Below, one piece after another: positions 54,228 to 54,509 of a stretch of DNA of 64,000 nucleotides. How positions within the stretch are numbered: position 1 is the stretch's first letter; the number at the start of each line of letters is the position of its first letter. Under the pieces are notes generated by a model. It did not search any database. It saw only the letters and a list, made by a program, of their open reading frames with translations, and had not been told where the DNA came from. Source of the stretch: Escherichia coli (GTDB lineage: Bacteria; Pseudomonadota; Gammaproteobacteria; Enterobacterales; Enterobacteriaceae); assembly GCF_001677475.2 (NCBI RefSeq), contig NZ_CP015229.1; one strand, given 5' to 3'. The position numbers and the translations under genes were made by a program.

Positions 54228-54509
54228 ATGATTAAAGACAGCAAAGCGGAAGAACTGGAGGCTAAAGGGCTGTACCGGAGAGCGGCGGCACGTTGGGCTG
54301 ATGTTATGTGGCTGGTGAGCACTGACAAGGAGCGCGAACAAGTGGCAAAGCGTCGCGCGGAATGTATCCGTAAGGCAGCACGCCCACCAGTCATACCGGA
54401 TAATTTCGGAATACTGAAAGAGGCCATAAACCGCACACATACCGGGATGGGCTTACAGAAGCCTGGCGGTGAGATGTTCAGGAACTACCCGAAAAAAGGG
54501 GATAATTGA
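54228..54509 (+). CDS. PerC-family transcriptional regulator
   Basis: 93 aa. KAEELEAKGLYRRAAARWADVM matches the PerC/Pch signature as I recall it. Confidence 0.65.
   Translation: MIKDSKAEELEAKGLYRRAAARWADVMWLVSTDKEREQVAKRRAECIRKAARPPVIPDNFGILKEAINRTHTGMGLQKPGGEMFRNYPKKGDN

Follow-up and report, generated by a model that had tools for sequence, protein, structure and literature searches.

What a mobile element gains from a gene of the PerC family, and whether such a gene acts on the element or on its host, is the question raised by a locus on Escherichia coli contig NZ_CP015229.1 (assembly GCF_001677475.2). We analyzed a 64,000-nucleotide stretch of this contig (the window), in which the open reading frame (ORF) at 54228-54509 had been described from the letters alone (the sequence-only reading) as a PerC-family regulator carried by a satellite, which would serve either as the satellite's late activator or as a link to host virulence regulation. 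Our results point instead to an accessory regulator of the PerC/Pch family, held in an exchangeable slot of a capsid-forming phage-inducible chromosomal island (cf-PICI) and the counterpart of pchE of E. coli O157:H7, and not to a dedicated activator of the capsid genes. We give this a probability of about 60%.

The ORF scan showed a frame at 54216..54509 (+) that opens with GTG and has an in-frame ATG at 54228, from which a product of 93 amino acids (aa), MIKDSKAEELEAKGLYRRAAARWADVM..., is read. A Shine-Dalgarno GAGG lies 8 nt 5' of this ATG, the ssb stop codon is 15 nt from it, and the motif on which the sequence-only reading was based forms residues 6-27 of the product. Compared with Pfam, residues 1-89 aligned to positions 1-89 of the 90 in the PerC profile PF06069 with E=9e-36 and 122.5 bits (cut-off 22.6), and the match to phrog_994 of PHROG had E=3e-42; a chance match is excluded by these values. 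Genes with 97.9-99.3% nucleotide identity are labelled "PerC family transcriptional regulator" in RefSeq, and full-length matches to the gene were found in 34 complete E. coli genomes. In an alignment of 71 sequences that takes in both PerC of enteropathogenic E. coli (EPEC) and a prophage Pch-type protein, D4, E11, G14, R17, R18, A19, R22, W23, and C46 were invariant in all 71, and the window protein has all nine. Its pairwise identity was 99% to the protein of KFu019, 98% to that of 042, 60% to PerC of the O157:H7 cf-PICI, 48% to both a 104-aa lambdoid prophage protein of EDL933 and EcCIMP1_025, and 44% to EPEC PerC of pMAR2. Judged by profile and alignment, both the ORF and its assignment to the PerC/Pch family are secure, as had been claimed for them.

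This family is small, with 342 representatives at E<=1e-3 among 1.84 billion, and its matches in bona fide phage genomes were nearly all partial, mainly over residues 6-60. No second PerC copy was found within the window, NCBIfam and PADLOC searches with the protein gave no match, and a sequence search for a solved structure yielded none (best E=1). The predicted fold suggests a TPR-like helical hairpin and not a helix-turn-helix (HTH). The window protein lies outside group 1 of the Pch proteins, being 93 aa long, satellite-borne, and 48% identical to the 104-aa EDL933 protein, which stands in here for PchA/B/C and whose own group 1 identity is inferred from its size and location. Two other proxies for PchA/B/C were rejected: P0041, named "PchABC family" by NCBI, which occurs in 2 complete genomes, and a DEC5B plasmid protein, which occurs in 1; at such counts neither is the canonical gene.

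The element that carries perC is a satellite of 15.4 kb (about 46725-62129) situated between the two halves of a prophage terL gene. Its gene order starts with an integrase, two AlpA-family genes, Bro-N, DUF4222, a RepA-like helicase, and the origin, and proceeds through an 83-aa gene, ssb, perC, an 82-aa gene, a terminator, and a convergent 157-aa ORF to the head/packaging module, which consists of the major capsid protein, S78 protease, portal, head-tail connector, HNH, TerS, and TerL. The satellite lacks genes for tails and lysis, and an ORF scan of 46.7-62.1 kb gave no other ORF of at least 120 aa except ones overlapping the listed genes. Published cf-PICIs are defined by int, alpA, and rep/ori together with a head/packaging set, by having no tail or lysis genes, and by a size of about 10-15 kb (10.1101/2022.09.08.507074). 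By gene content, every listed gene having a Pfam match (int, alpA, capsid, and packaging genes among them), the element is a cf-PICI, and the gene had been correctly described as satellite-borne.

The position of perC within this element is the same as that of pchE in O157:H7. In the cf-PICI of O157:H7 86-24, which lies between roxA and phoQ, a small ORF, the gene for the single-strand DNA-binding protein (SSB), perC (90 aa), and a second small ORF precede the capsid gene; the order in the window is identical, with perC after ssb and upstream of the capsid module, the position characteristic of group 3. A tricistronic ECs1586-ECs1587-pchE RNA was mapped by Andreozzi and Uhlich in 2020 (PMC7369912), its start being a G located 10 nt 5' of ECs1586 and 675-680 nt 5' of pchE (PMC7369912). 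In the O157 element (our locus L017), this G has position 10743 and the start of perC position 11422, and the resulting 679 nt fits the published map. Since both the transcript distance and the gene order fit, PerC of the O157 cf-PICI is taken to be pchE (ECs1588) and the window gene its positional counterpart. Overexpressed pchE represses csgD, curli, biofilm formation, and HEp-2 adhesion, whereas PchE promotes flagella and does not activate the enterocyte effacement locus (LEE) (PMC6265319, PMC7369912); expression of pchE is low and steady and declines upon SOS induction (PMC6265319, PMC7369912). The mapped pchE promoter could not be located in the window, whose origin/promoter region is of the other iteron type and does not align, and because the iteron/origin type differs, this promoter is not conserved in the window.

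The contents of the slot occupied by perC varied among the elements compared, which numbered about 11 and do not constitute a census. In the 2014C-3075 element, the order is ssb, ProQ/FinO, the 82-aa gene, and capsid, without PerC, and ProQ also takes the place of PerC in NCCP 13717 and in locus L024. By annotation, neither PerC nor ProQ is present in ST648 and S22EC, and a Rosenbergiella cf-PICI has only ssb, a small gene, and capsid, again with neither; in classical PICIs, PerC and ProQ are both present. The same perC block is also paired with two different replicases. These comparisons suggest that the slot is exchangeable and may hold PerC, ProQ/FinO, both, or nothing in related elements. 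A capsid-centered contig scan for cf-PICIs gave one useful locus (Rosenbergiella, L010), with distant Firmicutes capsids or fragments making up the rest, and an ssb-to-capsid search was dominated by ssb homologues of other PICIs (1669 genomes) and was unusable for counts of elements with and without PerC.

Beyond cf-PICIs, PerC homologues lie directly after the primase (with SSB and ProQ optional) in AlpA/DUF4222 islands of Salmonella, Enterobacter, Erwinia amylovora, and other Enterobacteriaceae, and those of E. coli classical PICIs are likewise post-primase. Further family members are located in lambdoid prophages between the lysis and terminase genes, on plasmids, and in islands rich in insertion sequences. 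The allele of the window itself is found in enteroaggregative E. coli (EAEC) 042 and in pig isolates named enterotoxigenic E. coli (ETEC). Earlier papers stated that some E. coli PICIs encode PerC variants (Fillol-Salom et al. 2018) and that PerC-family regulators are common in Gram-negative PICIs (Pick et al. 2025, PMC11773190).

Within a block of four genes that extends from the origin to an intrinsic terminator (small ORF, ssb, perC, and small ORF), perC is the third. As an accessory regulator, its product, a TPR-like helical protein of about 90 residues without a classical DNA-binding fold, would alter the transcription of AT-rich, H-NS-silenced genes, either by remodelling H-NS/StpA/Hha nucleoprotein complexes or through contact with other regulators. 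In the host, it would probably act on genes of the cell surface and of motility (those for curli, adhesins, and flagella and, in strains that have it, the LEE), and mobile-element genes may be targets as well. Mechanism, targets, and timing of expression are here extrapolated from the family, while family membership, gene order, terminator, slot variability, and predicted fold were obtained from the locus and its relatives. Several points weigh against this reading. At 44-60% identity to characterized members, neither the targets nor even the sign of the effect is predictable for the window protein, and with the pchE promoter not conserved here, its uninduced expression is not predictable from that of pchE. 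The conserved post-primase position across genera could point to a role in the satellite life cycle and not to a host-directed one, and PerC paralogues elsewhere in genomes whose cf-PICI lacks PerC might act in trans, which would weaken the case that PerC is dispensable. The evidence from the fold is weak, as TPR-like matches are commonly given by any small helical hairpin.

Table. Features of the satellite and of the interrupted prophage gene, with positions in the window
Feature	Position	Strand	Basis or remark
Prophage terL, N-terminal part (ATPase domain and nuclease profile positions 2-64)	45689..46724	+	Pfam
Integrase, of uncertain start codon, with two genes of the AlpA family (48077-48310, 48344-48652)	46822..48652	+	PF00589, PF13356, PF05930 twice
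RepA-like AAA_25 replicative helicase (satellite rep)	51927..53336	+	PF13481 E=1.9e-43, phrog_2850; RefSeq "helicase RepA family protein" in L009
Putative satellite replication origin	53332..53553		AT-rich core flanked by 8 or more AAAAGTGGGG iterons in both orientations (repeat search)
Conserved small gene, 83 aa, first after the origin; ECs1586 counterpart	53539..53790	+	phrog_1231
ssb (single-strand DNA-binding protein); ECs1587 counterpart	53787..54212	+	PF00436 E=2.9e-16, phrog_44
perC-family gene, 93 aa	54228..54509	+	ORF, Pfam, PHROG, RefSeq naming of 98-99% identical genes
82-aa gene	54555..54803	+	phrog_1957 E=2e-36
Bidirectional intrinsic terminator, predicted to close the ori-ssb-perC block and the convergent ORF	54810..54843		10-bp stem with 6 G-C pairs, T-runs on both strands
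Orphan ORF, 157 aa, convergent	54841..55314	-	Variable site, flanked by perC block and capsid operon
Conserved capsid-upstream block TTTTGTAAGTTATTTGTTCGTGGTTGTTCCAGGTTGTTCGG and sigma-70-like site	55375..55459	+	Alignment, promoter scan, motif positions
Capsid/packaging module	55609..61602	+	Pfam; RefSeq annotation of the 97% identical KFu019 element
Prophage terL, C-terminal part (nuclease profile positions 64-283)	62130..62855	+	PF20441 E=9e-37

The first of the two roles originally suggested for the gene was that of the satellite's late activator, a protein made from the replication-zone transcript after induction that would switch on the capsid/packaging promoter. The gene had also been placed just upstream of the capsid operon, which is only roughly right: the capsid ATG at 55609 is 1.1 kb 3' of perC, and the 82-aa gene, the terminator, and the 157-aa ORF lie between. 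Given the terminator (a hairpin at 54810-54835 plus T-runs), perC is predicted to be in a transcription unit separate from that of the capsid operon, which would therefore need either a promoter of its own or antitermination. Features upstream of the capsid gene suggest an activator-dependent promoter, namely a conserved block with two copies of GGTTGTTC (55375-55416, 10 nt start to start), a motif without further copies in the window, and a sigma-70-like site, TTTACA-16-TATGTT, that is weak (55432-55459); perC lies at the boundary of the replication and late zones, and in satellites of several genera its homologues directly precede the late zone. However, over about 240 bp, the capsid-upstream region, which contains TTTTGTAA(A/G)TTATTTGTTCGTGGTTGTTCCAGGTTGTTCGG, does not differ between the window, KFu019, and 2014C-3075, the last of which has ProQ and no PerC, and the block is partly kept in O157 and Rosenbergiella: the core motif is retained in Rosenbergiella with neither gene and in the O157 element although its PerC is only 60% identical. 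As the same region is present in cf-PICIs with and without PerC, the capsid promoter region does not covary with PerC. Between perC and the capsid operon stand a strong terminator and a convergent gene, an embedded satellite could be reached by late transcription of the helper (PMC10111431), and AlpA is named as required for induction and transfer in the cf-PICI paper, with PerC unmentioned (10.1101/2022.09.08.507074). The GC content upstream of the capsid gene was 0.39-0.41 over 55200-55500, with no strongly AT-rich tract of the kind found in a classic H-NS target, so that counter-silencing of the capsid promoter by PerC is without compositional support. Taken together, these comparisons disfavor a dedicated late-activator role, and we consider it unlikely.

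A second alternative is action by protein contact: the protein would be an anti-activator like those of the ANR family or would modulate the helper phage. Possible targets are an AraC-family regulator such as that of the prophage (41640-42353) and H-NS, through which the expression of helper or satellite genes would be tuned. Among the close relatives of the window protein, the N-terminal 52 residues match the NCBIfam ANR model weakly (E about 1e-3), and the homologue P0096 is named "ANR family" by NCBI. The predicted TPR-like fold would suit such contacts, the helper prophage bears an AraC-type gene after Q, and EPEC perC shares its operon with perB and the AraC-type perA. A function of this kind was proposed by Pick et al. 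for EcCIMP1_025 (PMC11773190), and contact of ANR proteins with AraC regulators and with H-NS is described in two further papers (PMC4983702, PMC5570504). The window protein itself, however, had no ANR match at E<=0.01 (NCBIfam NF033650), and its relatives P0015 and P0107 reached about 19 bits against a cut-off of 32. In the stretch examined, the helper of 2014C-3075 is without an AraC-type gene, and the satellite there also lacks PerC, but this sample is too small to decide. We regard this mode of action as quite unlikely for the window gene.

Least likely, and very unlikely in our estimate, is a LEE activator of the PerC/PchABC type that raises ler transcription in attaching-and-effacing E. 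coli: although the window protein shares the Pfam family and the invariant N-terminal residues and is 48% identical to the 104-aa EDL933 Pch-type protein and 44% to EPEC PerC, two proteins with a mutual identity of only 47%, the same allele occurs in EAEC 042 and ETEC-named pig isolates, pathotypes that are typically LEE-negative, same-position homologues occur in satellites of Erwinia, Salmonella, and Enterobacter, genera not known to carry the LEE, and no LEE or stx was found within the window. Without LEE and stx in the window, the enterohemorrhagic E. coli (EHEC) background considered by the sequence-only reading cannot be established. Homologues borne by PICIs that have been tested do not activate LEE1, unlike PerC and PchABC: PchE and PchD are neutral, and EcCIMP1_025 represses it (PMC11773190, PMC6265319), silencing LEE1-lux in Citrobacter rodentium (Pick et al. 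2025, PMC11773190). According to PMC11773190, citing Porter 2005, LEE1-lacZ was unaffected by the PerC-like proteins of EcCIEDL933 and EcCICFT073. Of the Pch groups, group 1 (pchABC) alone is needed for the expression of ler and espA (PMC6265319). LEE regulation thus appears unlikely as the principal role of the window gene. The broader suggestion that it plugs the satellite into host virulence regulation is plausible by way of pchE and its effects on curli, adhesion, and flagella, but it is not new.

Several genes adjacent to perC were characterized further. The putative origin is directly 3' of the RepA-like helicase, and PICI origins have been reported at such a post-helicase position (PMC10111431). 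For the 83-aa gene, the phrog_1231 match covers residues 63-145 of a longer ORF, and the start ATG is aligned with that of the O157 homologue. The 82-aa gene (phrog_1957) was present, immediately ahead of the capsid region, in 5/5 cf-PICIs compared, whether PerC-bearing or not; its exact protein shares four contexts with PerC and one with ProQ, and its homologues are few, all close, and unnamed. An AlphaFold2 model of this protein, a candidate alternative regulator of the capsid operon, had a pLDDT of 54 and was unusable. The 157-aa ORF, for which Pfam, PHROG, NCBIfam, and PADLOC gave no match, is present together with PerC in L022, L023, L025, and L026 and absent from the ProQ-type and O157 elements, and a 168-aa ORF takes its place in 042; its site looks like a variable accessory hot spot that could hold a defense gene. 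An Rfam scan of 53300-55700 found nothing. The block at 55375-55416, also seen in L001, L009, L017, and L010, is a candidate operator for control of the capsid operon, and the predicted folding of the GC-rich 5' leader of the capsid gene was not significantly stronger than that of shuffled sequence (z=-2.0). At the other end of the satellite, a terminator-like hairpin follows each of the tandem AlpA-family genes (48334-48353 and 48661-48686); alpA is usually single in descriptions of Gram-negative PICIs.

The terL gene of the lambdoid prophage is split by the satellite at position 64 of the TerL_nuclease profile. The satellite core genes are all on the + strand and co-oriented with the prophage late genes. 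An identical terL split is annotated around the same satellite in KFu019, Stx1d-positive 2014C-3075, and EAEC 042, in each of which RefSeq records a "terminase large subunit, missing C-terminus". Such an arrangement, including the large terminase gene as a site, was described by Mageeney et al. 2023 as a helper-embedded PICI, or HE-PICI (PMC10111431), and by its position the window satellite is a cf-PICI that is also helper embedded, in terL. With terL interrupted, the prophage would have no TerL until the satellite excises; the satellite meanwhile supplies TerS and TerL of its own. The term cf-PICI is absent from the HE-PICI paper, in which we found no discussion of a capsid-forming embedded element, and PerC and PF06069 are absent from its supplementary gene tables (PMC10111431). 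The capsid protein of the Rosenbergiella sp. YN46 cf-PICI (L010) is 89% identical to that of the window, a likeness that fits published near-identical cf-PICIs across genera.

In the helper prophage, the AraC-family regulator gene (41640-42353) follows the Q antiterminator (region 40258-43230) and is itself followed by tRNA-Met and tRNA-Arg (42380-42631) and a TerB-like ORF. This stretch after Q is the usual position of stx in Stx phages; stx is not present in the window. The EDL933 locus has a 237-aa gene with an HTH domain near Q that is of the same length as the AraC-family gene of the window. When compared with 5425 complete E. coli genomes, the chromosomal backbone (window 800-8400) was 95-99% identical to all and more than 98.9% identical to none, and coverage of the helper prophage (window 27000-45000) by any complete E. 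coli genome was 59% at most, so that this set holds no close match to the source strain.

ProQ/FinO genes, located at L009:20183-20725, L024:312-842, L004:9474-10165, L028:6520-7276, and L019:7001-7882, either alternate with PerC or directly precede it in the same satellite slot, and on an IncK2/Z conjugative plasmid a PerC-family gene adjoins a ProQ/FinO gene. Arrangements of this kind hint that the two small regulators are linked in function. Classical PICIs that have PerC after ssb and ProQ carry a second, divergent PerC paralogue near the right end (98-100 aa, about 40% identical), as at L004:15835-16131 and L035:8551-8853, and EcCIMP1_025 is likewise a right-end gene.

Both the gene and its type were already known, from RefSeq naming, from the PerC variants described on PICIs in 2018, and from the study of a PICI-borne PerC on LEE1 in 2025, and work on its cf-PICI counterpart pchE dates back to 2004. 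No study appears to address the use of PerC to the satellite itself, and its fixed post-primase position in genera not known to carry the LEE makes the question a fair one. It is conceivable, if doubtful, that PerC-family proteins are native components of Gram-negative PICI-type satellites that serve the satellite's own cycle and that the virulence activators are later exaptations. From its constant place between the replication and late zones in Escherichia, Salmonella, Enterobacter, Erwinia, and other Enterobacteriaceae, PerC could then, for example, relieve nucleoid silencing of late genes of the satellite or helper, or manipulate a helper regulator; PerC of the EPEC plasmid and PchA/B/C of the EHEC prophages would derive from a satellite regulator; and ProQ/FinO would be a functional partner of PerC or its alternative in the slot. 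The alternation of PerC and ProQ suggests a regulatory accessory slot comparable to the known defense-gene hot spots of satellites. If the window allele modulates adhesion, curli, or motility as PchE does, intergeneric transfer of the satellite in its own capsids could spread regulatory rewiring.

Among known systems, the ANR family of AraC negative regulators (Aar, Rnr) comprises small, helical proteins from enteric mobile elements, which regulate through protein contact. ANR proteins are about 60 aa long and lack the C-terminal part of PerC; profile likeness to them was weak and below the cut-off in relatives of the window protein (residues 6-52) and was not found in the window protein. PerC (BfpW) of the EPEC EAF plasmid pMAR2, the founding PF06069 member, has 89 aa and the same helical core but is only 44% identical, is plasmid-borne, and belongs to the perABC operon. 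PchA/B/C, the group 1 proteins of EHEC lambdoid prophages, have the same conserved N-terminal core, and their counter-silencing of H-NS/StpA/Hha at AT-rich DNA (PMC4764244) offers the best available model for the family. Their genes adjoin lysis genes, whereas perC of the window is in a satellite replication zone, and LEE1 activation is a property of group 1 Pch proteins only (PMC6265319). EcCIMP1_025 is PICI-borne and has 93 aa like the window protein, but it is 48% identical, is encoded at the far end of a classical PICI without capsid genes, and represses LEE1-lux. PchE of EcCIEDL933 (CP-933C) shares with the window protein the Pfam family, the cf-PICI slot, and a similar size (90 versus 93 aa), at an identity of only 60%, an observed figure to which no known threshold for shared targets applies. 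The O157 element combines a DUF927 primase with GCGGGTTAT-type iterons, located where the window element, which has a RepA-like helicase, bears the unrelated AAAAGTGGGG iterons, and the former lies between roxA and phoQ, outside any prophage, whereas the latter lies inside a prophage terL.

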